Source of the DNA: Bdellovibrio sp.
GTDB lineage: Bacteria > Bdellovibrionota > Bdellovibrionia > Bdellovibrionales > Bdellovibrionaceae
Length of the DNA stretch: 64,000 nucleotides
Assembly: GCA_036676395.1 (NCBI GenBank)
Contig: JAKFCY010000003.1
Coordinates: 288,001-352,000, forward strand
Reading direction: 5' to 3'
Position 1 is the first letter of the stretch; each line of letters starts with the position of its first letter. This document shows positions 9,735 through 61,680 of the stretch, one piece after another. The translations under genes were made by a program, and so were the position numbers. The notes under the pieces were generated by a model. It searched no databases. It worked only from the letters and a program-made list of their open reading frames with translations, and was not told the origin of the DNA.

Positions 9735-10883
9735 ATGAGACGATTTTTATTAGTTTTTTCTAGCGGTATTTGTTTAGTTTGTATCAATATGGCACACGCT
9801 CAGTCTGGTTCGGCGCCACCCTCATCAACTCCGCCTGTACAAGTTACGGTTCCGACCTTTAATCCGGGCAGTCCTCAAGGTGTTCAACAACCTATTCAAA
9901 ATGGAAATTCCGGGGCTCCGGCTACTGGCGCAGCTGCTCCTGTAGGAAAATATTACGAATATCTTTCATACTGTCGCCAGCCTTTAGAATTTAAAAATCC
10001 ATTATCAGATGCAGACTTTGCAATGGCACTTGAACCATTTAAAACAACATTCAACAGCAAAAAAACTTTTCCAAATTTAGAAGCTATGGTTGATTTTCTG
10101 ATCAACGAAACACGTACAAAAGAAGCACGTGCAGTCGTTATTGAAAATAAATCTTTATTGACCGTGGCTCAGGACAAAGCTTTACAGGCACGAATTCTTA
10201 TTGCTGACCGCAAATATCGTGAAGCAATTACTGTTTTAGATTCGGTGCCTGACGAAGGCAAAAATGACTTGCTTGTGCTGGTCGAATATTCGCGGGCTTA
10301 TCGCAAGGTAGACAATTTATTCGAAGCCAAAAGCGCTCTACAGGATGCAATTAAAGTCGATAAAAAACATGGCAACAAATACCTTTTAGATTTATGTATT
10401 TTAGAGACTGAAGACTCAAATCACGCTGAGGTTGACGTGGTTTGCGCGAAAGTTTCAAAGATTTTTCCTAAAGATTATTTATCTTTGATTTACATGGGAA
10501 TTTCACTTCGCGAGAGACTCAATTACAAAGAGGCACAGAAATTATTTGAACGTTCAGCGCAGATTGAAAAGAACGAATTTGCACTATCTTGCTTAGGTGA
10601 AGTTTTTTATTTACAGAAAAATTTTGGTAAAGCGATTGAAGCTTTTAAAGCTGCCACAAACATTGAACCAAAATCCGGACGTGCTCAATTAGGTGCTGCA
10701 CAATCTTTATATCAACTGCTTCGTTACGACGAGGCTTTGCCATATTACATTAAAGCCTGCCAGCTTGATAAATCGTCAGCGACTAGATTTCGTGAGGCCC
10801 AGCAGCCTCTAGAAGCCGCGAAGCTAAAGGTTTCTACGGCTTACTACCAGGGCATCCAGCAATGCGGCGGTATTCGTTATTAA
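9735..10883 (+). CDS. Secreted TPR-repeat protein
   Basis: Signal peptide ending AHA-Q, Pro-rich linker, TPR repeats (LGEVFY, AIEAFKAA). Confidence 0.75.
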   Translation: MRRFLLVFSSGICLVCINMAHAQSGSAPPSSTPPVQVTVPTFNPGSPQGVQQPIQNGNSGAPATGAAAPVGKYYEYLSYCRQPLEFKNPLSDADFAMALEPFKTTFNSKKTFPNLEAMVDFLINETRTKEARAVVIENKSLLTVAQDKALQARILIADRKYREAITVLDSVPDEGKNDLLVLVEYSRAYRKVDNLFEAKSALQDAIKVDKKHGNKYLLDLCILETEDSNHAEVDVVCAKVSKIFPKDYLSLIYMGISLRERLNYKEAQKLFERSAQIEKNEFALSCLGEVFYLQKNFGKAIEAFKAATNIEPKSGRAQLGAAQSLYQLLRYDEALPYYIKACQLDKSSATRFREAQQPLEAAKLKVSTAYYQGIQQCGGIRY

Positions 10884-12253
10884 ACGATCCCGCCAATAAG
10901 GTCATATTCCATACTTTCAGTAATTTCAACCTGAACGATATCGCCGATTTTAGCTAAGCCATCATTGATTAATACAACACCATCAATTTCAGGAGCTTGC
11001 TGAGATGTACGGCCTTGTAATAACAATTCAGTTTCTTCGCTGTAACCTTCAACTAATACTTCAACTGTTTTACCAATGAAGGCTTCGTGTTTAGCTTTAG
11101 AAATACCTTGTTGAATCGACATTAAAGCATCATGACGGAAGTCTTTGATATGCTCTTCGATTTGGTCAGTCATTTTTCCGCCTGGAGTGTTTTCTTCAGG
11201 CGAATATTTAAAACAACCCACGCGATCAAACTGCTGCTCAGAAACAAATTTTAATAACTCTTCAAAGTTTTCAGCGGTTTCACCGGGAAAGCCCACGATA
11301 AATTGCGTGCGGATAACTGCATCTGGAATTTCAGTGCGGATACGTTTTAACGCGATTTCAATTTCTTCGCGCGTCATCTTACGGTTCATTTTTTTAAGAA
11401 CGTCGTTATTGATGTGTTGTAATGGCATATCGAAATACTTTACGAACTTTTTGTTCGACTTCATTAAATCGATAAGTTCTTGTGTGATTCCATCTGGATA
11501 TAAATACAACATACGGATCCACTGAATACCGTCAACTTCAGCTAGAGCTTTTAATAGCTCGACTGGGGTCTCTTTAGCTGTTGGGTCTTTGCGACGTAAA
11601 TCCCAACCGTAGTCTGTAAAGTCATGGCTGATAATAATTAATTCTTTAACACCGCCAGCAGCCAATAATTTAGCTTCGTTAACGATATTTGGAATTGTAC
11701 GTGATTGTAAGTTACCGCGAATTAATGGAATTGCGCAAAAGGCACAACGCTTCATACAACCTTCAGAAATTTTTAAGTACGCTCTGTGTTTAGGTTGTGA
11801 ATTTACCCGCGGAGTAGTTTCTTCTTGTAAGTAAGTTGGCAAATTAAAGAACGTTTTCTTTTTATCTCCGGCATCGTGGCTTTTTAAAATCTTAGCGATA
11901 TTTTGAAATTCACCGCTGCCAACAAAAAGATCGGCTTCAGGCAAACCTTCAACTAATTCATCTTTATAACGTTGAGTTAAACAACCAGCCACAACAACTT
12001 TTTTGATTTGGCCCTGTTCTTTTAATGCCGTCATATCCAAAATTCTTTGGATAGATTCTTTTTTAGAGTCTTCAATGAAGCCGCAAGTATTTACAACAAC
12101 TGTATCAGCGTCTTCAGCGTCGGCTACAACTTGATAGCCGTCTTTCATTAATGTACCGGCCATGATTTCGCTATCAACCAAGTTCTTAGGACAACCTAAG
12201 CTGATAAAGTGGACTTTTTTAGGGGCAGTTTCTGGAGTTATTTTTTGGCTCAT
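10880..12253 (-). CDS. rimO: Ribosomal protein S12 methylthiotransferase
   Basis: SLGCPKNLVDSE, NTCGFI, CxxxCxxC radical SAM motif, APEIDG, TRAM domain. Confidence 0.97.
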   Translation of the reverse strand: MSQKITPETAPKKVHFISLGCPKNLVDSEIMAGTLMKDGYQVVADAEDADTVVVNTCGFIEDSKKESIQRILDMTALKEQGQIKKVVVAGCLTQRYKDELVEGLPEADLFVGSGEFQNIAKILKSHDAGDKKKTFFNLPTYLQEETTPRVNSQPKHRAYLKISEGCMKRCAFCAIPLIRGNLQSRTIPNIVNEAKLLAAGGVKELIIISHDFTDYGWDLRRKDPTAKETPVELLKALAEVDGIQWIRMLYLYPDGITQELIDLMKSNKKFVKYFDMPLQHINNDVLKKMNRKMTREEIEIALKRIRTEIPDAVIRTQFIVGFPGETAENFEELLKFVSEQQFDRVGCFKYSPEENTPGGKMTDQIEEHIKDFRHDALMSIQQGISKAKHEAFIGKTVEVLVEGYSEETELLLQGRTSQQAPEIDGVVLINDGLAKIGDIVQVEITESMEYDLIGGIV

Positions 12254-51838: not shown

Positions 51839-52013
51839 TTCTACAAATTACAGAAATCGTTTAAGATTCTGCGATCCTAATGCTTTAGCGCAGCAATGAA
51901 AATCAAAGTGTCGCAGTGTTTTTTGATGACAGAAATCTGTCTTAAGATAATTATCCCCCTCGATTCGGAACTATTCAACATGTCAGCTGACGTTGGTCAG
52001 TGAGGGGGATTTG

Positions 52014-52409
52014 GTGAAAAAAACCGAGAATTCAGAAACATTAATTATGTCGCCAGAACTGACTATCATCAGAGATTCATTACTATTGCAAAAAAGCGAA
52101 ATTTTAAATCGTGATAACGAATTTAAATTAGCGCAATTAGATGTAGCGAAACTTTCAGATGAAGGTGATCAGACTGCGCAAGAACAACAAAACAATATTT
52201 CAATTCAGCTGCACGAACGCGAGAGAATGTCTCTGGTGCACATTGAAAAAACTCTTTCAAAATTTGCTACTGGTACCTACGGTGAATGCGAATCTTGTGG
52301 TGATGACATCACGATCAAGCGTTTACAAGCTAGACCTTTAACTCCTTTTTGCATCAATTGCATGGAAGAGCACGAAGAGCAGTCGCATCACTCTGGACTA
52401 ATCCAATAA
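52014..52409 (+). CDS. dksA: DksA/TraR-family regulator with C4 zinc finger
   Basis: DEGDQT tip; YGECESCG...RLQARP..FCINC; GAGGGGG SD before TTG/GTG. Confidence 0.85.
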   Translation: MKKTENSETLIMSPELTIIRDSLLLQKSEILNRDNEFKLAQLDVAKLSDEGDQTAQEQQNNISIQLHERERMSLVHIEKTLSKFATGTYGECESCGDDITIKRLQARPLTPFCINCMEEHEEQSHHSGLIQ

Positions 52410-52584: not shown

Positions 52585-55005
52585 ATGACATTTGACAATC
52601 AACCAGTTGAAGTACCGCAAACTCTACCGATGTTACCAGTAAGAGATATCGTTGTATTCCCATACATGATCATCCCTTTATTTGTTGGCAGAGAATCTTC
52701 TATCAGATCAGTTGAAGATGCTTTAGCTAAAAATCGCCTTATCTTTTTAGCATCGCAAAAAGATATCGCTGAAGAAAATCCTACGCCAGACACAATCTAC
52801 AAAGTTGGTACTGTCGCAAAAATTATGCGCATGAGAAAACTTTCTGATGGCCGTGTAAAAATCCTGATTCAAGGTGAAGCGAAAGCGCAAATCACTTCTT
52901 TCACAAAAACAACTGGCAGCTATGAAGTAGCTATCGAAAAAATCGAAGACAAAGGCACGACTTCAACTCCTGCTGAAATCGAAGCTTTAATTCGCACAGC
53001 GAAAGAGTCGATCGAAAAAATCATCGCTCTTGGTAAAGCTTTATCTCCTGATATCTTATTAGTATTAGATGATGTGACTGATCCAGGTCGTATCGCAGAT
53101 CTTATCGCAAGCAACTTGGGCGTAAAAGTTCAAGAAGCGCAAAAAGTTCTAGAAACAGTAGACGCAAAAGAACGCCTCTCCCTAGTGTGCACAATCTTAG
53201 CTGCTGAATTAGAAGTTTTACAGGCGCAAGCAAAATTACGCGGTAACTCTCGTGATGACCAACACAAAAATCAAAGAGAAAACTTTTTACGCGATCAAAT
53301 GAAAGCTATAAAATCTGAACTTGGTGAAGCTGGTCAGCAAGATTCAAAAGCTGAAGAGATGGATGAACTACGCGCTAAACTTATGGCGTGCGGAATGCCA
53401 GAACCAGTTCAATCTGAAGCTTTAAAACAATTAACCCGTTTAGAGCGAATGCATCCGGATGCTTCTGAAGCAACTATGGTTCGTACATACTTAGACTGGA
53501 TGGTTGATCTTCCGTGGAGCAAACAAACTGAAGATATCCATGATTTAAAACATGCAATGCAAGTTTTAGATGATGATCACTATGAATTACAAAAAGCTAA
53601 AGACCGTGTAATGGAATTTTTAGCTGTAAGAAAGTTAAAAACGACAATGAAGGGTCCAATCCTTTGTTTCTCTGGTCCTCCGGGCGTAGGTAAAACTTCG
53701 CTAGGTCGCTCAATTGCAAAAGCAATGGGTCGTGAATACTTCCGTATCGCACTTGGCGGCGTAAAAGACGAAGCTGAGATTCGTGGTCACAGAAGAACAT
53801 ACGTAGGAGCAATGCCAGGTAAAATCGTGCAAGCTTTACGTCAATGTAAAACTAAAAATCCGGTTATCGTGTTAGATGAGATCGATAAAATGGCTTCAGA
53901 TTTCAGAGGTGATCCAGCTTCTGCAATGTTAGAGGTGTTAGATCCAGAACAAAACACAACTTTCCGTGATAACTATTTAAATGTAGATTTCGATTTATCG
54001 AAAGTTCTATTCATCGCAACAGCAAACGTGGTTGAAAACATTCCGCCAGCTTTACGCGATCGTATGGAAATGATCTACATCCCTGGTTACACTGAAAATG
54101 ATAAATTATTTATTACTAAAAAACATTTGATTAGCAGACAAATGGAAGCCAACGGAGTTACATCAGATAATATTAAATTTACTGATGAAGGTATCAAATT
54201 CTTAATCGCAGGATACACACGCGAAGCCGGATTACGTAACCTTGAAAGAGAAGTTGGTTCTGTTTGCCGCAAGGTTGCTAAAAAAGTTGTGATGAATGAA
54301 TCAAACTTTGTTGAAGTGAATGAAGTAACAGTACCAGAATTACTTGGTCCTCCACGTTTCTTACGTGATGAAAGAATGCTTGAGCCATCTGTTGGTGTTG
54401 TTCAAGGTCTTGCTTGGACTCAAGCTGGTGGTGAAGTACTTTTAATCGAAGCACTTAAAATGAAAGGTAAAGGCAGTTTAATGCTTACCGGACAATTAGG
54501 TGATGTGATGAAAGAGTCTGCTCACGCAGCGATGTCTTATGCTCGTGCTCATATGGACGAACTAGGTATCGATCAAGAAATGTTTGAAAAATTTGATATT
54601 CACGTGCATTTACCTGCAGGTGCAATTCCGAAAGATGGTCCTTCTGCCGGTATCACGTTAACTACAGCCTTGGTCAGCTTGTTAACTGGAACACCAATCA
54701 GAAATGACATCGCTATGACTGGCGAAGTGACTTTACAAGGTCGCGTCTTACCTGTCGGCGGTATCCGTGAAAAGTGCTTAGCGGCACTTAACTTAGGAAT
54801 CACTAACGTGATCATCCCTATGGCTAACGGAAAAGATCTTGAAGACATCCCACAAATTTTCAAAGAGAAGATGAATTTCATCTTAGCAGAAAATTTAGAT
54901 GAAGTTTTTGCAGTAGCTTTCGAGAAATCAGAGCGCTTCTCAAAAACTAAAACCGGAGCCAACAAATCTCCGAAAAAAGGCAAAGCTACATCAGCGGCGG
55001 CTTAG
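52585..55005 (+). CDS. lon: ATP-dependent Lon protease
   Basis: LPVRDIVVFP, GPPGVGKTS, LDEIDK, PKDGPSAG. Confidence 0.98.
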   Translation: MTFDNQPVEVPQTLPMLPVRDIVVFPYMIIPLFVGRESSIRSVEDALAKNRLIFLASQKDIAEENPTPDTIYKVGTVAKIMRMRKLSDGRVKILIQGEAKAQITSFTKTTGSYEVAIEKIEDKGTTSTPAEIEALIRTAKESIEKIIALGKALSPDILLVLDDVTDPGRIADLIASNLGVKVQEAQKVLETVDAKERLSLVCTILAAELEVLQAQAKLRGNSRDDQHKNQRENFLRDQMKAIKSELGEAGQQDSKAEEMDELRAKLMACGMPEPVQSEALKQLTRLERMHPDASEATMVRTYLDWMVDLPWSKQTEDIHDLKHAMQVLDDDHYELQKAKDRVMEFLAVRKLKTTMKGPILCFSGPPGVGKTSLGRSIAKAMGREYFRIALGGVKDEAEIRGHRRTYVGAMPGKIVQALRQCKTKNPVIVLDEIDKMASDFRGDPASAMLEVLDPEQNTTFRDNYLNVDFDLSKVLFIATANVVENIPPALRDRMEMIYIPGYTENDKLFITKKHLISRQMEANGVTSDNIKFTDEGIKFLIAGYTREAGLRNLEREVGSVCRKVAKKVVMNESNFVEVNEVTVPELLGPPRFLRDERMLEPSVGVVQGLAWTQAGGEVLLIEALKMKGKGSLMLTGQLGDVMKESAHAAMSYARAHMDELGIDQEMFEKFDIHVHLPAGAIPKDGPSAGITLTTALVSLLTGTPIRNDIAMTGEVTLQGRVLPVGGIREKCLAALNLGITNVIIPMANGKDLEDIPQIFKEKMNFILAENLDEVFAVAFEKSERFSKTKTGANKSPKKGKATSAAA

Positions 55006-55030
55006 TTTATAAAATTATAATGTTCAAACG

Positions 55031-55063
55031 AAAAGGCTCAGGTTATTACCCTGGGCTTTTTTT
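55031..55063. terminator. Intrinsic terminator after lon (possibly bidirectional)
   Basis: AAAAGGCTCAGG-ttattac-CCTGGGCTTTTTTT. Confidence 0.8.
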
Positions 55064-55079
55064 CTTTTACGCAAATTTG

Positions 55080-55328
55080 TTACCCTTTTTTAGTTTCCCT
55101 AATCAAGTCACGAATTAAAACCTTCTTACCTTTAAGCTTCGTCAGCCCGTCCGCAATTTGCTCTAGCGCCAGCAATGTTGGGTTCGCCCCTTCTTTTTTA
55201 TAAGCATAAAGCTGTGTGTACACGACACCAATTTGATTGGCCAAATCAATAATCGAATGCTCTCCTAAAAGCTCTTCAAATCTTAACTGTGTTTTGGGTT
55301 TTTTATCTGTGCTCAATTTTGACTTCAC
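55080..55328 (-). CDS. XRE/Cro-like HTH transcriptional regulator
   Basis: SIIDLANQIGV...YKKEGANPTLLALEQIADGL pattern; 82 aa. Confidence 0.8.
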   Translation of the reverse strand: MKSKLSTDKKPKTQLRFEELLGEHSIIDLANQIGVVYTQLYAYKKEGANPTLLALEQIADGLTKLKGKKVLIRDLIRETKKG

Positions 55329-55338
55329 GCTTAATCTG

Positions 55339-55388
55339 AATATATGTTTAAAATTATATTTGTTATACTATAACTTTAAACATATATT
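55339..55388. promoter_or_regulatory. Long inverted repeat, probable operator in the divergent promoter region
   Basis: AATATATGTTTAAAATTATA-N10-TATAACTTTAAACATATATT, 19/20 complementary. Confidence 0.7.
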
Positions 55389-55409
55389 ATTGCAAGCCGA
55401 GGAAAAAGC

Positions 55410-55832
55410 ATGAATAACAATGAAAAGTTTTCTAAATCAAAAGATATGATTCTGAGCATTAAGCCTCCTTATGCAAACTTAATTGTTGATGGCGTGAAGA
55501 CGATTGAATTAAGACGTCGCTTTCCAGAAAACCTTCCTCAAGGCACTAAAATATATGTTTATTCAACATCTCCCCAACAGGTCGTGATTGGAGAATGTGA
55601 GATTAAAGAAATCATTAAGAGGCCACTTGCTACATTGTGGTCAGCCGCCGCTATCGAGGCGATGATTTCTAAAAAAGATTTTGACGACTATTTCACTGGC
55701 TTAGAAGAGGGATATGGGGTCCGCGTCTGGAAATTTAAACGGTACGAAAAGCCTAAAAGCTTAACATCTTACTTAGGAAGTAAGGCAACTGCTCCACAGT
55801 CCTATAGATACGTACCTGAGATTGAGGCGTAA
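55410..55832 (+). CDS. Stand-alone ASCH-domain protein
   Basis: ILSIKPPYANLIVDGVKTIELRRR (GxKxxExR), YVYSTSP...IGE, APQSYRY. Confidence 0.88.
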   Translation: MNNNEKFSKSKDMILSIKPPYANLIVDGVKTIELRRRFPENLPQGTKIYVYSTSPQQVVIGECEIKEIIKRPLATLWSAAAIEAMISKKDFDDYFTGLEEGYGVRVWKFKRYEKPKSLTSYLGSKATAPQSYRYVPEIEA

Positions 55833-55839
55833 AATATAA

Positions 55840-57651
55840 ATGAATATTAGCCTGTTGATAGATACGAATGTCGCTATCCAGCTCGAAGAAGCAGGTACCG
55901 ACGGCGAAATTAAGGGATCATTTGCCCTATTACATTCCCAGGTGCTTAAGCATAAAATATCAGTACTTATCCATCCTATATCTGTAGAGGATGTAAAAAA
56001 TGATAAAAATGAGGCTCGTAAAAAAACTACATTATCACGCCTCAATAAGTATCCTTTTTTGCAGTCGCCTCCGACGCCAGTAGGAAACCAGTTAGAGGAA
56101 CTATTTGGCGGTCTTTCAAAGACAAATGATGTTGTAGATGCGAATATTCTCTTTGCTGTCTATAAAAACTGTGTCACTTACCTAGTTACAGAAGATCTTG
56201 GTCTACACAAAAGAGCTAAAAATTCGGGATTGGATGACCGTGTTCTTTCTGTGGCCGAAGCTTTAGATTGTATTAATCGGACATACGAACCATCAGCGGT
56301 GCACTTCCCAGCCATAAGAGAAGAATATACATATAATATCGACATAAATGATCCAATTTTTGATTCTCTAAAAGAAGATTATGACGAATTTGTTCAATGG
56401 TATCAAAAAAAGTGTTGTGAAAAGCAAAGAAAGGCTTGGATTATCGAAGCAGATAATCGTCTTGCGGGCATTTGTATTTATAAGCATGACGATACACAGG
56501 AACACAGTGGTATTGATCTACCATCAATGAAACTAGCTACGTTTAAAGTTTCCGATGATTTCAAAGGTGCTAAATATGGTGAGCTTCTTTTGAAAATGGC
56601 GTTAGGTTATGCCTATAAAAATGGAATAAAAACAATTTGGGTTACTGCGCGGCCTAAGCAAATAGTATTAATTCAGTTTCTTAAAGATTTTGGTTTTAGT
56701 GCGCATTCTGAACTCGCCGGCGAGGATATGATTTTTTATAAGCAGTTGTTCGTGCCGAACGGAACTCAGTCAATGCCACCTTTAGAATTTCACATTAAAT
56801 TTAGCCCCCACTACCTTGATCATAAGCATATCAATAAGTACGCAATCCCGATTAAACCAAAATATCATGATTTATTGTTTCCGGAAATATCTCCGCAAAT
56901 ATCCTTGGGCACGGGTGTTCCCGGCAATACGATTAAAAAAGTTTATATTTCTCAGTCAAAAATTAATGAATTAGCAATTGGATCATTGATTTATTTCTAC
57001 CGTTCATCGCCAGAACAATATTTAACCACAATCGCTGTTGTTGAACGATGCAGAAGAATGTCGGATTTAACTGCTATTGCAAGTGCAATTGGGAAAAGAT
57101 CAGTTTATTCCTCAAAAGAAATCGAAGAGATGGTTGCAGAAAACAAAGAAATACTTATTATAAATTTTAGACTAATTGGGCATTTTAGAAAATTTATTAC
57201 ATTAAAAGAATTGGTTTCTTCTAATATTTTTAGTGCTGCACCTCAGTCTATTACTGGTCTATCTGAAGATGTCTATACTAAACTTAAAGATTTTTCTCCA
57301 GTCGCACGCCATCCATTCGATATTGAAATGAAACTTAGCCCGGAGCCATTTGCAGTAACTATTTCTGGGCAAAAAACTTTAGAAGTAAGAATACATGATG
57401 AGCGCCGAAAATATTTAAAGCCCGGCCAAATAATTCGTTTTGTAAATAGCGAAAACGGTAAAGAGGAACTGTTTGCAACAGTTATAAGTATTCGACTCTA
57501 TTCAAGTTTAGATCAGTTAGTACAACAAGAAGATATCAGAAAAACCGGTGGATTATATACTGATCCAAACGATTGGTTAGAAAAACTTAAAAAATATTAT
57601 CCTGACGGTGGCGAGGGTATGGCAATTGAAATTACCAAGCTAAATTTCTGA
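55840..57651 (+). CDS. Multidomain PIN - GNAT acetyltransferase - PUA/ASCH-like - ASCH protein
   Basis: LIDTNV, NDVVDA, LVTEDLGL (PIN); KLATFKVSDDFKGAKYGELLL...FGF (GNAT); IPIKPKYH...IYFYRS...APQS (PUA/ASCH-like); SGQKTLEVR...KPGQIIRF (ASCH). Confidence 0.82.
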   Translation: MNISLLIDTNVAIQLEEAGTDGEIKGSFALLHSQVLKHKISVLIHPISVEDVKNDKNEARKKTTLSRLNKYPFLQSPPTPVGNQLEELFGGLSKTNDVVDANILFAVYKNCVTYLVTEDLGLHKRAKNSGLDDRVLSVAEALDCINRTYEPSAVHFPAIREEYTYNIDINDPIFDSLKEDYDEFVQWYQKKCCEKQRKAWIIEADNRLAGICIYKHDDTQEHSGIDLPSMKLATFKVSDDFKGAKYGELLLKMALGYAYKNGIKTIWVTARPKQIVLIQFLKDFGFSAHSELAGEDMIFYKQLFVPNGTQSMPPLEFHIKFSPHYLDHKHINKYAIPIKPKYHDLLFPEISPQISLGTGVPGNTIKKVYISQSKINELAIGSLIYFYRSSPEQYLTTIAVVERCRRMSDLTAIASAIGKRSVYSSKEIEEMVAENKEILIINFRLIGHFRKFITLKELVSSNIFSAAPQSITGLSEDVYTKLKDFSPVARHPFDIEMKLSPEPFAVTISGQKTLEVRIHDERRKYLKPGQIIRFVNSENGKEELFATVISIRLYSSLDQLVQQEDIRKTGGLYTDPNDWLEKLKKYYPDGGEGMAIEITKLNF

Positions 57652-57879
57652 TAGCATCGATTATCTAAATCAAAACGGAACTTATGCTGCCTTTTAATTT
57701 ATAAATGTTGTTAATTCGAGTAAACAACTCAGCGTAAAAACATTGAGCTTTTTACAAGGTGTGGTTCCAGTGTAAAACCACTTATCATTTCGATTTCAAT
57801 TAGTAGTTAGTGCGTTTTCAATTACAAAAATTATTTTTAAAAATTATGGTTTTTCGAATGCATCGTTTATAGATGCGCC

Positions 57880-59085
57880 ATGCGCTCAATATCAGCACTC
57901 TTAATTTTTTTATCTCTTCCCGCTTTCGCTCAATCAGACTTTTCTTTTAAACAAAGATATGTTGGTGAATTTCAATTTATTCAAGAAGATAAATTTAAGA
58001 CGGTAAATAATCTTACGCCCTACCAGCGTAAATCTTTTGATCTAAAAGCCATCGAAGCTGAATACGAAATTCAGTTAAATCCTAATAATAAATTCGAATT
58101 CGAAGTTGAATATGAACATGGCGGTGTGGGCTCTGCTGTTGAGTTTGATAATTTCGAAGAATTCGGTGAGTTCGAAACCGAAGTTGAAAAAGGCGGAGAA
58201 GTTGTTGTCTCTGAAGCTTTTCTCTTAAAAAAGCTTTCACCAAAAACAGAATTATATATAGGTAAGTCTCCAGTAGGGATCACGCTGAATAATGCGATGA
58301 ATTCTCCGCTTATGTATTCTTCGAATGAGGCTTCGCAGTTAGAAGCGCGCATTGTTCCGCAAGAGTGGAACGAAATGGGCCTGCAAACTAAAACACGTCT
58401 TGGCGACTGGAGTATCTACGCCGGTATCGTGAGCGGTTTAAATTCTGAATTTTTTCGTAAGTACAATTGGGTTGGCGGCGGATACCAAAAACAATTCGAA
58501 AATATCAACGCCGATCAATTAGCCTACACGGCTGGTCTTGAATGGGGTGATGTGATTTGGGGCCGCGGGATCAGCGTTCATTATTATGAAGGTGATACAC
58601 AAAAAAACCGTTACAAACTAGATAAACTGACTGTTCCAGCTACTGTGCGCATCTACACCGCGATGGCTCAGTGGAAATTTTTTGATCGCGTAGGAATCGT
58701 TACTGAGCATATCCGAGGCACGTTGCAAAACTCTGAATCTGTTGCTTTAGCTAATGCTACTTTAAGTGGTGTGGCTAAACCAAAAAGCTTTGCCGCGCTT
58801 GGATCACAAGCAGCACTTCAGATGTATCAATTAAATGTAGATGTAACAGACACGTTAAATATTTTTAGTCAGTACGAACACGTAAATACTTTTATGCAGG
58901 TTGAAGGAACGATCGCAAAAGACCCCCGTTATGATGTGATTCAGAATGGTTATGGTTTCGCTTACAAGCTGGATGAAATCACGCATATCAAAGCTCATTA
59001 TTATAAAGAAAAAACAAAATTAGAAGCGCTTCCGGAAACTACGCACTTTGTGCTGAGCTTTAATCTGGATACCGCTGAATTTTAA
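57880..59085 (+). CDS. Outer-membrane porin-like protein of the iron-uptake operon
   Basis: Signal peptide ending AFA-Q, acidic EVEYEHGG...EKGGEV metal-binding-like motif, terminal Phe. Confidence 0.7.
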   Translation: MRSISALLIFLSLPAFAQSDFSFKQRYVGEFQFIQEDKFKTVNNLTPYQRKSFDLKAIEAEYEIQLNPNNKFEFEVEYEHGGVGSAVEFDNFEEFGEFETEVEKGGEVVVSEAFLLKKLSPKTELYIGKSPVGITLNNAMNSPLMYSSNEASQLEARIVPQEWNEMGLQTKTRLGDWSIYAGIVSGLNSEFFRKYNWVGGGYQKQFENINADQLAYTAGLEWGDVIWGRGISVHYYEGDTQKNRYKLDKLTVPATVRIYTAMAQWKFFDRVGIVTEHIRGTLQNSESVALANATLSGVAKPKSFAALGSQAALQMYQLNVDVTDTLNIFSQYEHVNTFMQVEGTIAKDPRYDVIQNGYGFAYKLDEITHIKAHYYKEKTKLEALPETTHFVLSFNLDTAEF

Positions 59086-59098
59086 CTAAGGAGAAGAA

Positions 59099-60184
59099 AT
59101 GAAAATCATGAACCTAGTGCTTAGCACTCTATTATTCGGTGCTGTTGCATCAGCCGGAACACTTGAAAAACAAGTGATCGAAAACGTTTCTAAAAACGTT
59201 ATTCTGCAAACTTATAAAGATCTTTCTGATCGTTCAGCAGACTTATTAACTGCTGTTAAACAATTAGAAGGCAACCGCACGCAAGCAAATTTATTAAACG
59301 CACAAAATGCTTGGGTTGCTGCTCGTGCCCCATGGGAAGCTTCTGAATCTTTTTTATACGGCCCAGTTGATTCTTTAGGTATTGATCCAATGATCGACAC
59401 TTGGCCTTTAAGCCGCATCGATTTAGATTCTGTTTTACATTCTGGTAATACAATCAATTCTGATTTCGTTAGAAACTTGGGTGTAAACTTACAGGGTTTT
59501 CACACATTAGAATATTTATTATTCGGTGATGGCATTCATACTAACACAAAAGAAGTTTCAAGCTTTACGCAAGCGCAATTTGATTACTTAATCGCTACTG
59601 CGGTTTTACAAGCTGAATACACTCATAAATTACATTACGCTTGGACTACTCAAGCTGATCCAGATGACGCTTCTCAACCAGGCTTTATCGATGTCATCTC
59701 TAAACCAGGCTTCGACAATCCAATTTATTCTTCTGAACAAGCTGTTATGTTTGAATTCGTCAATGGTATCTTAGGCATTTTGGACGAAGTGGCTAACGGT
59801 AAAATGTCTGATCCATTGGGCGGCGATATCGCGCATGCTAATGTTGAGTTAGTTGAATCTCCGTACTCTTGGAATTCATTATTAGATTTCGAAGACAACA
59901 TCCGCAGCGTTTACAACGTTTACACAGGCTCTTACGGCGGCAGCAAAAAAGGCCCTGGTCTTAAGGAAGTTATTGCGCAAACTAACCCTGAATTAGCAAA
60001 TCGTGTTGAAGCAAGAATTCTACAAGCTATGGGTAAAATCAAAGCTATTGCTGGCGACAACAACACACCTTTCAATAAAGCAATTTTAGATGCTCAGGGC
60101 CGTGTTTTAACAACTGAGGCGATCAATGACTTAAATGGTTTATTCCAATTAGTTGAGAGCGAAGTATTACCAATTTTTCAATAA
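59099..60184 (+). CDS. Imelysin/IrpA-family (M75) iron-regulated protein
   Basis: AWVAARAPWE.SE, IDTWP, GFHTLEYLLF, VESPYS. Confidence 0.9.
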   Translation: MKIMNLVLSTLLFGAVASAGTLEKQVIENVSKNVILQTYKDLSDRSADLLTAVKQLEGNRTQANLLNAQNAWVAARAPWEASESFLYGPVDSLGIDPMIDTWPLSRIDLDSVLHSGNTINSDFVRNLGVNLQGFHTLEYLLFGDGIHTNTKEVSSFTQAQFDYLIATAVLQAEYTHKLHYAWTTQADPDDASQPGFIDVISKPGFDNPIYSSEQAVMFEFVNGILGILDEVANGKMSDPLGGDIAHANVELVESPYSWNSLLDFEDNIRSVYNVYTGSYGGSKKGPGLKEVIAQTNPELANRVEARILQAMGKIKAIAGDNNTPFNKAILDAQGRVLTTEAINDLNGLFQLVESEVLPIFQ

Positions 60185-60195
60185 TCAGGATTTAT

Positions 60196-61680
60196 ATGAA
60201 GATTTCTTTGTTCTTAACATTTATTTTCTTAAGTTTAACTTCTCAAGCTGAAATAATTTTTGATGATAGCTTTGTTAGGCAAAGAAATCTGGGTGGTGAT
60301 GGTACATATGTTGCCAACTTCGGCACTACTGTTTCATTTAAACAACCGGTGACAACCATGCCGCCAGAATTACAGGAAAAACACATTGTGGGCGATGGCT
60401 TATTCGAAAAAAACTTTTCTGATGATCCTACCCGTTCAGATTATGGATTAGGTCCTGCTTACAATAATATTAGCTGCGCCAGCTGTCATATCCGTGACGG
60501 CCGCGGTTCTTTGCCTGTTATCTCTGCCAATAATGCGTGGACAAAGCTTGGCCAAAACGAAGCTATTTTTCTTCGTATTAGTGTTGAGTCTTACGTTTCT
60601 AAAAATCTGCACGGCGAACCGACTGCTGTTCCAGGTTACTCAACCCAATTATTTCACCTTGGCAGTTATCATTTACGCCAAAATTCACCAAACACAGGCC
60701 AAGCCGAAGTTTGGATGAAATATGAATACTCAACTTTTACTTATCCCGATGGACAAGTTGTTAAAATTAAAAAACCTATTTTTCAAATTAGAAACCCTTA
60801 CGATTTATCAACTGATGAATCAGGAAATTCAACAAGCCGTCTGTTTCAAGATGATGTTCGCACAAGCCCGCGCATGACTCCGCCCATGATCGGTTTAGGT
60901 TTATTAGAAGCTATCGAACAAGATGATATTATCGCCTTAGCTAATCGCGATTTATCAGCCTGGGGTGTGCATGGGCGACCAAACTGGGTTTACGATATTG
61001 AAAAACAAAAAAATAATTTTGTCGATGTTTATAGCCTAGGGCGTTTCGGCTTAAAGGCAAATACACCTTCGGTGTTACACCAAGCCCTGGGGGCTTTTCG
61101 CGGTGACATGGGCGTGACAAATTCATTTTTTCCTGATGAAAGTATCGCCGGAACACCATTGATCGAAAAAATTCTTCCGTCGTTAAAAAAAGAAGTAAAT
61201 ATCAATGATGAAGATGCTCTAGACACTGTATTTTATTCGCAAACTTTAGCCGTGCCTTCCCGTCGCAAAGAATACTTAGAAGCTGACATCGTTGCCGGCG
61301 GTAAGAATTTCAAAAATGTTGGCTGTACAAATTGCCATCAACCTGAATTCATAACTGGCAAACATTCTATCGAAGCTTTAAGTTTTCAAAGAATTGCTCC
61401 ATACACAGATTTATTATTGCACGACATGGGCGAAGGCTTAGCTGATAACCGTCGCGATTTCCAGGCCTCTGGCCGCGATTGGAAAACTCGCGCACTATGG
61501 GGAATCGGCTTAACTAAAACAATCAATGCCCGCGGTGGCTTTTTACATGATGGCCGCGCAGCTACTATCGAAGAAGCCATTCTATGGCATGGCGGCGAAG
61601 CACAAATCAGTCGTGATAAATTCGCAAGTCTGCCAGCTAATGAGCGTGCTCAAGTTATTAAATTTATCAACTCACTTTAG
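60196..61680 (+). CDS. Di-heme oxidoreductase (DHOR family)
   Basis: GLGP..N..SCASCH, GLGLLEA, CTNCH, YTDLLLHDMG, LHDGRA, AILWHGGE. Confidence 0.92.
   Translation: MKISLFLTFIFLSLTSQAEIIFDDSFVRQRNLGGDGTYVANFGTTVSFKQPVTTMPPELQEKHIVGDGLFEKNFSDDPTRSDYGLGPAYNNISCASCHIRDGRGSLPVISANNAWTKLGQNEAIFLRISVESYVSKNLHGEPTAVPGYSTQLFHLGSYHLRQNSPNTGQAEVWMKYEYSTFTYPDGQVVKIKKPIFQIRNPYDLSTDESGNSTSRLFQDDVRTSPRMTPPMIGLGLLEAIEQDDIIALANRDLSAWGVHGRPNWVYDIEKQKNNFVDVYSLGRFGLKANTPSVLHQALGAFRGDMGVTNSFFPDESIAGTPLIEKILPSLKKEVNINDEDALDTVFYSQTLAVPSRRKEYLEADIVAGGKNFKNVGCTNCHQPEFITGKHSIEALSFQRIAPYTDLLLHDMGEGLADNRRDFQASGRDWKTRALWGIGLTKTINARGGFLHDGRAATIEEAILWHGGEAQISRDKFASLPANERAQVIKFINSL

Follow-up and report, generated by a model that had tools for sequence, protein, structure and literature searches.

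Operons in which an EVE domain is fused C-terminally to a GNAT acetyltransferase, often with an N-terminal PIN domain, were described by Bell, Wolf and Koonin in 2020 (BMC Biol 18:159, PMC7641849), who trace the first description, and the idea of DNA-base acetylation, to Iyer et al. 2013. Their survey finds an ASCH gene in nearly all of these operons, often with one for an AAA_17 ATPase, and reports frequent embedding in type I restriction-modification (RM) loci, fusions of helix-turn-helix (HTH) domains to ASCH, and an ASCH-HsdS fusion. A two-gene candidate, PDC-M11, is among the 145 ‘guilt-by-embedding’ phage defense candidates (PDC) of Payne et al. 2024 (bioRxiv 10.1101/2024.01.29.577857), a set that the preprint describes as recovered via embedding in BREX, DISARM, and type I RM. 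Here, we analyze a three-gene cassette in a 64,000-nucleotide stretch of Bdellovibrio sp. DNA (assembly GCA_036676395.1, contig JAKFCY010000003.1, positions 288,001 to 352,000), called the window throughout. The cassette is almost certainly an acquired copy of PDC-M11, that is, of a (PIN)-GNAT-EVE + ASCH operon, placed just after the lon terminator and carrying as extras a second, fused ASCH domain (ASCH2) and a divergent HTH gene with a putative operator. The best explanation as a whole joins this identity to a role as an acetylation-based conflict module, a combination for which we see an even chance. The three genes are:

55080-55328, minus strand: HTH gene (P0124), an open reading frame (ORF) of 82 amino acids (aa) with a GTG start, encoding a putative repressor
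55410-55832, plus strand: ASCH1 gene (P0122), the PDC-M11B component, an ORF of 140 aa
55840-57651, plus strand: the big gene, an ORF of 603 aa

The two plus-strand genes are separated by 7 bp (55833-55839), and an 81-bp intergenic region divides ASCH1 from the divergent HTH gene; a preliminary description of this DNA had given the same layout, which the ORFs bear out. The 603-aa protein matches the PADLOC model PDC-M11A (PDLC04421) at 2.6e-139 and 463 bits, with residues 4-479 aligned to positions 2-477 of 486, and ASCH1 matches PDC-M11B (PDLC04425) at 5.8e-34, its gene being adjacent to the A gene, as the PDC-M11 definition has it, and on the same strand. In the PADLOC scan of the three proteins, only PDC-M11 models were matched, and no match to DarT or DarG was obtained. 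The architecture agrees with the operons of Bell et al. in the N-terminal PIN, the central GNAT, the C-terminal EVE/PUA-like domain, the neighboring ASCH gene, the association with an HTH protein, and the RM or defense neighbors seen in relatives. The window copy differs from these operons in that its HTH is separate and divergent, not fused to ASCH, no AAA_17 gene is present, an extra ASCH of the PH0355 type is fused to the big protein, and the third domain falls below the Pfam EVE threshold and is structurally closest to the ASCH protein of Zymomonas mobilis (ZmASCH). It differs from PDC-M11 in that ASCH2 (residues 496-603) and the HTH gene lie outside the definition and in that it is not embedded in BREX, DISARM, or type I RM. 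New here are the fused ASCH2 and the separate, operator-bearing HTH; the two-gene module itself is already catalogued. The preliminary description had called the unit undescribed and not assignable to a named system, and had named a match to such a system as what would overturn this; PDC-M11 in PADLOC, together with the architecture published by Bell et al. (PMC7641849), is that match, and the interpretation offered there is, overall, partly supported. In literature searches, the term ‘PDC-M11’ was found in defense inventories only, and ‘GNAT-EVE’ only in Bell et al. and the preprint.

Acquired DNA at the lon junction

The position of the cassette is defined by three features:

52585-55005: lon, the gene upstream of the cassette
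55030-55062, plus strand: intrinsic terminator of lon, from a terminator scan; the acquired segment begins just downstream of it
55063-57734, no strand: strain-specific insertion of ~2.7 kb, with approximate edges (~+/-30 bp), enclosing exactly the three genes

On the lon side, homology ends at 55005-55007 against the relatives G018 (locus L004) and G061 (L005), and at 55062 against G036 (L007); downstream, BLASTN homology to G018, which stops at 55005 on the left, restarts at 57735. The flanks of G018 are near-identical to those of the window (100% identity for Lon, 99% for a 401-aa protein encoded downstream) and its site is empty, with ~190 bp between lon and the 401-aa gene vs ~2.9 kb in the window. 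The site after lon is also empty in G061, whereas in G016 (L006) it is occupied by a different insert of 1.2 kb, with genes for an XRE-like protein (89 aa) and an HTH_3-Peptidase_S24 (LexA/CI-like) protein (253 aa), and G036 has unrelated genes downstream of lon; thus, within the genus, the position just downstream of lon is variable. Lon is present in 40/40 same-genus genomes, and the 603-aa protein, whose gene is single-copy in its own genome, was found in none of 36 same-genus genomes and in one of 24 other genomes of the order. Within a single metagenome run, 54984 is joined to 57760 on a contig from a ~6% diverged relative, and low-depth fragments identical to the cassette also occur.

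The cassette is accessory, horizontally acquired DNA. The claim that the three genes came as one unit holds, since the insertion boundaries enclose exactly these genes and the site is empty in a near-identical relative, and the genome counts above contradict the alternative that the unit is syntenic core genome, which the preliminary description had itself proposed to look for. Composition departs modestly from the surroundings, with a GC content of 0.361 in the insert vs 0.389 for the window. A bias toward ATA, AGA, and GAG codons relative to lon had been noted by eye, and stands in part: ATA occurs 23.2 times per 1000 codons in the big gene vs 1.2 in lon, AGA is not raised (16.6 in the big gene vs 16.1 in lon), and for GAG, only the two small genes show a rise (~36 vs 13.6 in lon). 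No integrase or transposase was found in the insert, nor any mobility gene. An inverted repeat at its edges (55065-55081/57723-57739; 17 nt, 82% complementary) was considered as a terminal repeat and rejected: 2.8 kb of AT-rich DNA contains 25 pairs of this kind, so that it is not beyond chance.

Downstream of the cassette lie the 401-aa gene, an imelysin gene, and a di-haem oxidoreductase gene (57880-61680), so that the unit sits between the lon terminator and an iron-related operon, as first described, and has no type I RM or other defense neighbor. The 401-aa gene belongs to no Pfam family and occurs in 4/40 other same-genus genomes (three at 84-99% and one at 41% identity); with so few carriers of its first gene, the iron operon also appears accessory in the genus. 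Just upstream of lon, 51993-52409 encodes a DksA/TraR-type zinc-finger protein.

Domain anatomy and catalytic residues

The 603-aa protein is built of four domains, all encoded on the plus strand:

55840-56295, plus strand (residues 1-152): PIN nuclease domain, called from a fold match and conserved acidic residues
56302-56751, plus strand (residues 155-304): GNAT acetyltransferase domain, called from Pfam and structure
56830-57300, plus strand (residues 331-487): ASCH/EVE-like domain 3, a paralog of ASCH1 without the catalytic Glu and a putative base reader
57325-57651, plus strand (residues 496-603 plus stop): ASCH2, a fused PH0355/DUF3850-type ASCH with an intact G-x-K-x-x-E-x-R motif

These domains, like the ASCH identity of the small partner, had been proposed from the letters alone, and the calls hold by Pfam, structure, and profile matches to the Protein Data Bank (PDB). 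An AlphaFold2 model built from 45 aligned relatives is confident for residues 1-485, with a predicted local distance difference test (pLDDT) score mostly >90, and poor over the last 115 residues (pLDDT 40-68), where the alignment is empty. The PIN domain of the window protein has no Pfam match of its own, and full-length fold searches returned lists swamped by GNAT matches; residues 1-153 were therefore folded separately with 62 relatives, reaching an AlphaFold2 pLDDT of 94.7. The listed Foldseek neighbors of this model are almost all PIN nucleases (best E 7.6e-4, template modeling scores of 0.47-0.57), including VapC11, VapC15, FitB, PAE2754, SMG6, the PIN domain of Rrp44, an SSU-processome PIN, and a PIN-like RNase P. 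Among family members, Pfam PIN_3 matches 7/45 and PIN_12 4/45. The acidic positions singled out in the preliminary description (DTN, D..D, TED) correspond to D8-T9-N10, D100, and E118-D119, which are conserved in the family; across 62 sequences, N10, E16, D100, and D119 do not vary, and D8 and T9 hardly do. A profile of the PIN alignment gave only a weak match to PDB sequences (the PIN protein 1O4W, E 0.2), and the call therefore rests on the fold, the Pfam matches of relatives, and the conserved residues.

The GNAT domain is recognized by Pfam Acetyltransf_1 at 4.9e-8, and residues 155-304 superpose on Ard1 with a VIA structural Z of 16.6, with Naa60, RimI, and many other GNATs tied within 1 Z; Foldseek neighbors include the toxin AtaT (6GTR, E 1.2e-5). 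In its loop, G247 and E248 are invariant, and G243 and K245 nearly invariant.

Domain 3 (331-487) superposes on ZmASCH (5Y6B) with a VIA Z of 15.2 and a root-mean-square deviation of 2.3 A over 139/139 ZmASCH residues. The region is matched by Pfam EVE in 21/45 relatives, the window protein itself having no EVE match at E 0.01, and it is homologous throughout the family alignment. Profile-profile comparison (hhalign) relates it to the ASCH1 family with a probability of 96.4% and E 1.1e-9, and the two have in common the motifs IPIxPxYH/SIKPxYA, FYRS/IYSTSP, and PPQS. At the position of the catalytic Glu (E33 of ASCH1), domain 3 has a family-invariant tyrosine, Tyr369. We read domain 3 as a probable binding module derived from the enzyme: as a paralog of ASCH1 that lacks the catalytic Glu, it would bind and not hydrolyze. 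A complex prediction for ASCH1 with residues 1-488 of the 603-aa protein gave scores of 0.00, 0.81, and 0.00 and is not used as evidence.

ASCH1 is matched by Pfam ASCH (2.5e-8) and is a clear homolog of ZmASCH (PDB 5GUQ, 1.8e-15). Its octapeptide G-x-K-x-x-E-x-R is intact (G28, K30, E33, R35), and K30, E33, and R35 are each kept in 77/78 partner ASCH1 sequences; other conserved positions are Y51 (77/78), Y94 (78/78), and S131 (75/78). Y51 and S131 align with Tyr47 and Ser128 of ZmASCH, which, according to Kim et al. 2017 (PMC5615036), are involved in a Mg-dependent cleavage of single-stranded RNA. Four PDB entries (5GUQ, 5GUS, 5Y6B, 5Y6C) represent ZmASCH, listed there as a ‘helix-turn-helix domain-containing protein’; ASCH1 of the window stands alone and shares its GxKxxExR motif and the equivalents of Tyr47/Ser128, and domain 3 has the same fold.

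The octapeptide has been linked to the removal of N4-acetylcytidine (ac4C). Statkeviciute et al. (bioRxiv 10.64898/2026.02.27.708502) report that 19/19 ASCH proteins assayed, ZmASCH included, strip ac4C from E. coli tRNA in vitro, and that the Lys and Glu of the motif are essential in the mutated TthASCH, EOLA1, and TRIP4 ASCH domain. ASCH1 and ASCH2 both carry the motif of these amidohydrolases, G-x-K-x-x-(E/T)-x-R, and domain 3 does not, having Tyr369 at the Glu position. Relative to YqfB and the other ASCH ac4C amidohydrolases (PMC6972931; bioRxiv 10.64898/2026.02.27.708502), the window proteins share the ASCH fold and, in ASCH1 and ASCH2, an octapeptide with the catalytic Lys and Glu (‘GKER’ type); those enzymes differ in standing alone, with no link to GNAT or PIN, YqfB itself is of the Thr (‘GKTR’) type, and the activity of the window proteins is predicted from sequence.

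The fused ASCH2 sets this copy apart. Its residues (496-603) match PH0355 (2Z0T, 2.5e-7) and PF0455 (1S04, 8.1e-6), two ASCH proteins of Pyrococcus; Pfam ASCH scores the region below its curated cut-off (E 0.0048), and its similarity to ASCH1 is marginal (E 0.038); the two PUA-like domains of the 603-aa protein belong to different ASCH subfamilies. The PDC-M11A models stop at residue 479-486, and the ASCH2 part has no match in PADLOC. A word-indexed search returned 543 homologs of the 603-aa protein; the 120 listed each cover at most 83% of the query, and their lengths are almost always 470-535 aa, so the canonical family protein lacks the last domain. No fused PIN-GNAT-EVE-ASCH2 protein was found by a word-limited search among proteins of 331-1056 aa in a 5.8-billion set. 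An exhaustive HMMER search for ASCH2 gave 627 matches, mostly stand-alone proteins of ~110-120 aa, and no PIN-GNAT-EVE fusion appears among the 34 longer proteins from the best 150 of the 627 that were scanned with Pfam. The partners fused to ASCH2 in these 34 include Macro, GNAT, NUDIX, metallophosphatase, CYTH, HD, a DNA-alkylation-repair domain, tRNA methyltransferase, and TIR, a range that would suit a domain handling modified nucleotides. P0250 (586 aa, from the representative library), taken up as a candidate for the same fusion, was rejected, its Pfam architecture being TIR-DUF6273-ASCH instead; this PH0355/DUF3850-type protein offers another conflict-type context for the ASCH2 subfamily.

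The four catalytic centers, namely PIN, the GNAT loop, ASCH1, and ASCH2, look intact as judged from conserved residues. This bears on a proposal of Bell et al., in which a GNAT-EVE protein of a (pro)phage would acetylate aminoacyl-tRNAs and the host PIN-GNAT-EVE protein would recognize these and degrade them through its PIN domain, with ASCH as a regulator. Their report that PIN-GNAT-EVE lies near host defense loci and GNAT-EVE in prophages (PMC7641849) is in keeping with such a countermeasure, as is the conservation of the PIN catalytic residues; however, neither the apparently active GNAT loop of the host protein nor the hydrolase motif of its ASCH partner finds an explanation, and we consider this proposal quite unlikely for the window module.

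Distribution, fusions, and neighborhoods of the family

The family is widespread, with 342 loci in a pattern scan of one genome per species across bacteria and archaea. Eighty of these were fetched, three being exact duplicates of others. An ASCH1-type gene lies on the same strand within ~150 bp of the core gene, or overlaps it, in 77/80 loci and is convergent in two (L035 and L038), and is thus adjacent in 79/80. The only locus without this neighbor is L010, on a Candidatus Berkiella contig (core gene 9995-11461), whose core protein is, across phyla, the nearest neighbor of the window’s on a quick tree (Shimodaira-Hasegawa approximate likelihood ratio test, SH-aLRT, 94). The clades of this core tree are taxonomically mixed. 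Of the two major ones, that with Bdellovibrionota, alpha- and gammaproteobacteria has ASCH1 upstream of the core gene, and that with archaea, Desulfobacterota, Chloroflexota, and others has it downstream. ASCH2 accompanies the module in only three of 81 loci (the window plus the 80): it is fused in the window, encoded by a separate gene that overlaps on the downstream side in L013 (genome G060), and by a convergent gene in L015. Its motif is intact in all three copies, and the three loci form, with six that lack ASCH2, a 9-row subclade of the core tree (SH-aLRT 92), so that the association may have a single origin.

Natural fusions bear out the functional link between the core protein and ASCH1. 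P0093 (653 aa) is a fusion of the core to ASCH1 (7e-13), an XRE-type HTH is fused to ASCH1 in seven loci, and ASCH1 is fused to a kinase-like AAA_17 domain in two, both from Campylobacterota (L030, 1091-2032; L031, 3076-4008). In the latter, the AAA_17/adenylate-kinase-like P-loop domain is C-terminal, and L031 carries, upstream of the core, another ASCH1 gene that stands alone. The HTH-ASCH1 proteins are laid out like a DNA-binding antitoxin, an analogy that supports ASCH1 as the neutralizing partner.

In the window, the HTH is a separate gene with its own putative operator:

55339-55388, no strand: inverted repeat and putative operator, with 20-nt arms (55339-55358/55369-55388) that are 19/20 complementary and a 10-nt spacer

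The repeat is not random, as none of 2000 shuffles of the region reached a 20-nt arm with <=1 mismatch (the longest was 16), and promoter-like hexamers, which are consensus matches only, overlap it on both strands. The HTH had been called XRE-type, an assignment that the data favor weakly: the NCBIfam RstR match (E 0.007) falls below the cut-off and no significant Pfam match was found, and its atlas neighbors are Cro/C1 HTH clusters at 0.94. Only eight close homologs (69-91% identity) are known from the search, starting at an equivalent position. One of them, in L088 (39-293; 78% identity), keeps the HTH-proximal half-site of the operator upstream and sits 400 bp upstream of a type IIG RM gene (698-2803; Eco57I, N6_Mtase, and HSDR_N domains); the contig ends 38 bp before the HTH gene, and a divergent partner would lie beyond the contig end. 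This arrangement suggests that the HTH and its putative operator are a portable regulator common to different defense cargos. Close relatives of the module carry non-homologous small DNA-binding genes in the same place: L013 has a ribbon-helix-helix (RHH) gene, L017 an 84-aa HTH_3 gene in divergent orientation, and L008 a short RHH-like ORF.

Such arrangements are also what a plain addiction toxin-antitoxin pair, selfish and without an anti-phage role, would show, with PIN and/or GNAT as the toxin, ASCH1 as a stoichiometric neutralizer, and the HTH as autoregulator. The gene pairs are tight and often overlapping, HTH or RHH genes adjoin ASCH1 or are fused to it, the insert is small, accessory, and free of mobility genes, and PIN and GNAT are common toxin folds. 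With the GNAT pairs (TacAT, AtaRT, ItaRT), the cassette shares the GNAT fold, which in the window lies within a 603-aa fusion with PUA-like domains and has an ASCH partner; with VapBC, it shares the PIN fold only (VapC11, VapC15, and FitB as neighbors), and the window PIN is fused, not stand-alone. No Pfam or NCBIfam match to an RHH/DUF1778-type antitoxin, as in TacAT and AtaRT, or to a VapB-type antitoxin was found in any of the three cassette proteins. The conserved catalytic residues of ASCH1, moreover, favor enzymatic over purely steric neutralization, and the defense-island neighborhoods of several relatives suggest more than addiction. A pure addiction module is, in our view, improbable.

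These neighborhoods were scanned with PADLOC (E <= 1e-10) for 101 of 215 selected ORFs (>=250 aa, within 6 kb), covering 16 of the 34 loci with full flanks. Known defense systems lie within 6 kb in 6/16 of these loci, as raw counts without a background control:

L012: type IIG RM, SIR2-HerA, and PDC-S23 (PADLOC, within 6 kb)
L014: type IIG RM and PDC-S35/TIR (PADLOC, within 6 kb)
L015: Gabija (PADLOC, within 6 kb)
L017: AbiEii (AbiE) (PADLOC, within 6 kb)
L023: type I RM, all three subunits (PADLOC, within 6 kb)
L029: Hachiman HamB and HEC-05/06 (PADLOC, within 6 kb)

In L012, L014, and L023, type I or type IIG RM genes stand directly beside the module. This proximity, the RM embedding and the HTH-ASCH and ASCH-HsdS fusions reported by Bell et al. 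(PMC7641849), and the recovery of PDC systems from BREX, DISARM, and type I RM embedding (bioRxiv 10.1101/2024.01.29.577857) could all be understood if the module were an RM-like discriminator, in which GNAT would self-mark a base of host DNA (a proposal that Bell et al. attribute to Iyer et al. 2013), the PUA-like domains would read modified or unmodified DNA, ASCH1 would be a DNA reader or specificity factor, and the nuclease would attack an invader that differs; the EVE, SRA, and YTH relatives, which are described as flipping modified bases (PMC7641849), would fit as well. Nevertheless, PIN domains are chiefly RNases, and the near-invariant Lys/Glu/Arg motif of ASCH1 is tied to amide hydrolysis by Statkeviciute et al. 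and would not be needed by a pure reader. The window copy has no RM genes beside it, and a self-marking system arriving as a lone 2.7-kb insert could hardly be taken up without self-killing if the mark were not written quickly. We regard discrimination of this kind as unlikely.

Distribution and neighborhoods also bear on a role outside conflict, for instance a merely mobile module of RNA modification or turnover that would conditionally write and erase ac4C in tRNA alongside an RNase. The in vitro action of ASCH proteins on tRNA ac4C (bioRxiv 10.64898/2026.02.27.708502), the control of cellular RNA levels proposed for ZmASCH (PMC5615036), and the lack of defense neighbors at the window copy are compatible with it. 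Yet a housekeeping role would predict a syntenic, conserved gene, and the module is patchy and horizontally scattered (0/36 same-genus genomes; taxonomically mixed clades), with defense neighbors in relatives; we find a non-conflict role very unlikely.

Reversible acetylation as a candidate mechanism

The most economical reading of anatomy, conservation, and context is reversible acetylation. We tentatively read the cassette, at somewhat less than an even chance, as a module for the reversible acetylation of nucleic acid, in which a toxin would be paired with an enzyme as its antidote. GNAT would transfer an acetyl group from acetyl-CoA to a nucleic acid, perhaps to the N4 of cytosine in tRNA, RNA, or single-stranded DNA, or to aminoacyl-tRNA. 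Domain 3, having lost its catalytic Glu, would position GNAT on the target, and PIN would be a second, RNA-cutting effector. ASCH1 and the cis-fused ASCH2 would erase the acetyl mark, so that the module would be harmless until an invader upsets the balance, and the HTH would repress both divergent promoters through the operator. The outline of a GNAT writer, an ASCH reader-eraser, and a PIN effector had been put forward in the preliminary description and fits the conserved catalytic residues, and its ASCH part has meanwhile found biochemical support; the anti-phage or toxin-antitoxin setting suggested with it fits the neighborhoods of relatives, where 6/16 loci have known systems nearby.

Several observations weigh against reversible acetylation in conflict. 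The window copy is outside any defense island, alone between lon and the iron-related operon, and 7/16 scanned loci have no PADLOC match nearby, with a lone or non-specific match only in three more (L026, L028, L034), again with no background control. The structural neighbors of GNAT, which comprise protein N-terminal acetyltransferases, small-molecule GNATs, and the tRNA-acetylating toxin AtaT, are tied in score, so the predicted fold does not discriminate the substrate. The ASCH-HsdS fusions of Bell et al. point to ASCH1 as a DNA reader, not an eraser. ZmASCH, the closest solved relative of ASCH1, is reported to be active only on tRNA in vitro, with no hydrolysis of free ac4C and no drop of ac4C in E. 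coli cells (bioRxiv 10.64898/2026.02.27.708502), and the first activity reported for it was RNA cleavage rather than deacetylation (PMC5615036). According to Bell et al. (PMC7641849), none of these modules had been characterized, and our literature searches yielded no experimental study of any family member.

The closest functional analogy to a reversible acetylation module is DarTG, in which the toxin ADP-ribosylates DNA and a macrodomain antitoxin removes the mark, and which is used in phage defense. The likeness is one of proposed logic only, a nucleic-acid-modifying toxin with an erasing enzyme; no sequence or fold relationship exists, and the chemistry would be acetylation, not ADP-ribosylation. 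By this analogy, the module might be an immune system, the acetyl counterpart of DarTG, in which GNAT would write N4-acetyl or a similar acyl group on cytosines of invader or host RNA or DNA, the dead ASCH paralog would guide it, the active ASCHs would reset the mark, and PIN would execute. Stated so specifically, the idea is doubtful, and we give it a modest chance.

The window instance is another accessory copy of a catalogued candidate system, from a family that has been flagged three times by comparative genomics. The 2026 report that ASCH proteins are ac4C deacetylases (bioRxiv 10.64898/2026.02.27.708502) gives this family a concrete candidate mechanism, which is sharpened by the present analysis: the free ASCH1 keeps the dyad almost without exception, the fused domain 3 has lost the catalytic Glu, and the other centers appear intact. 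If the reading of the window copy is true, its four-domain protein would be a self-limiting writer, reader, eraser, and effector in one polypeptide, with a second eraser in cis. If acetylation writing and erasing holds for the family, immunity by nucleic-acid modification would gain a new chemistry, and acetylated bases could be written and erased with a natural system.

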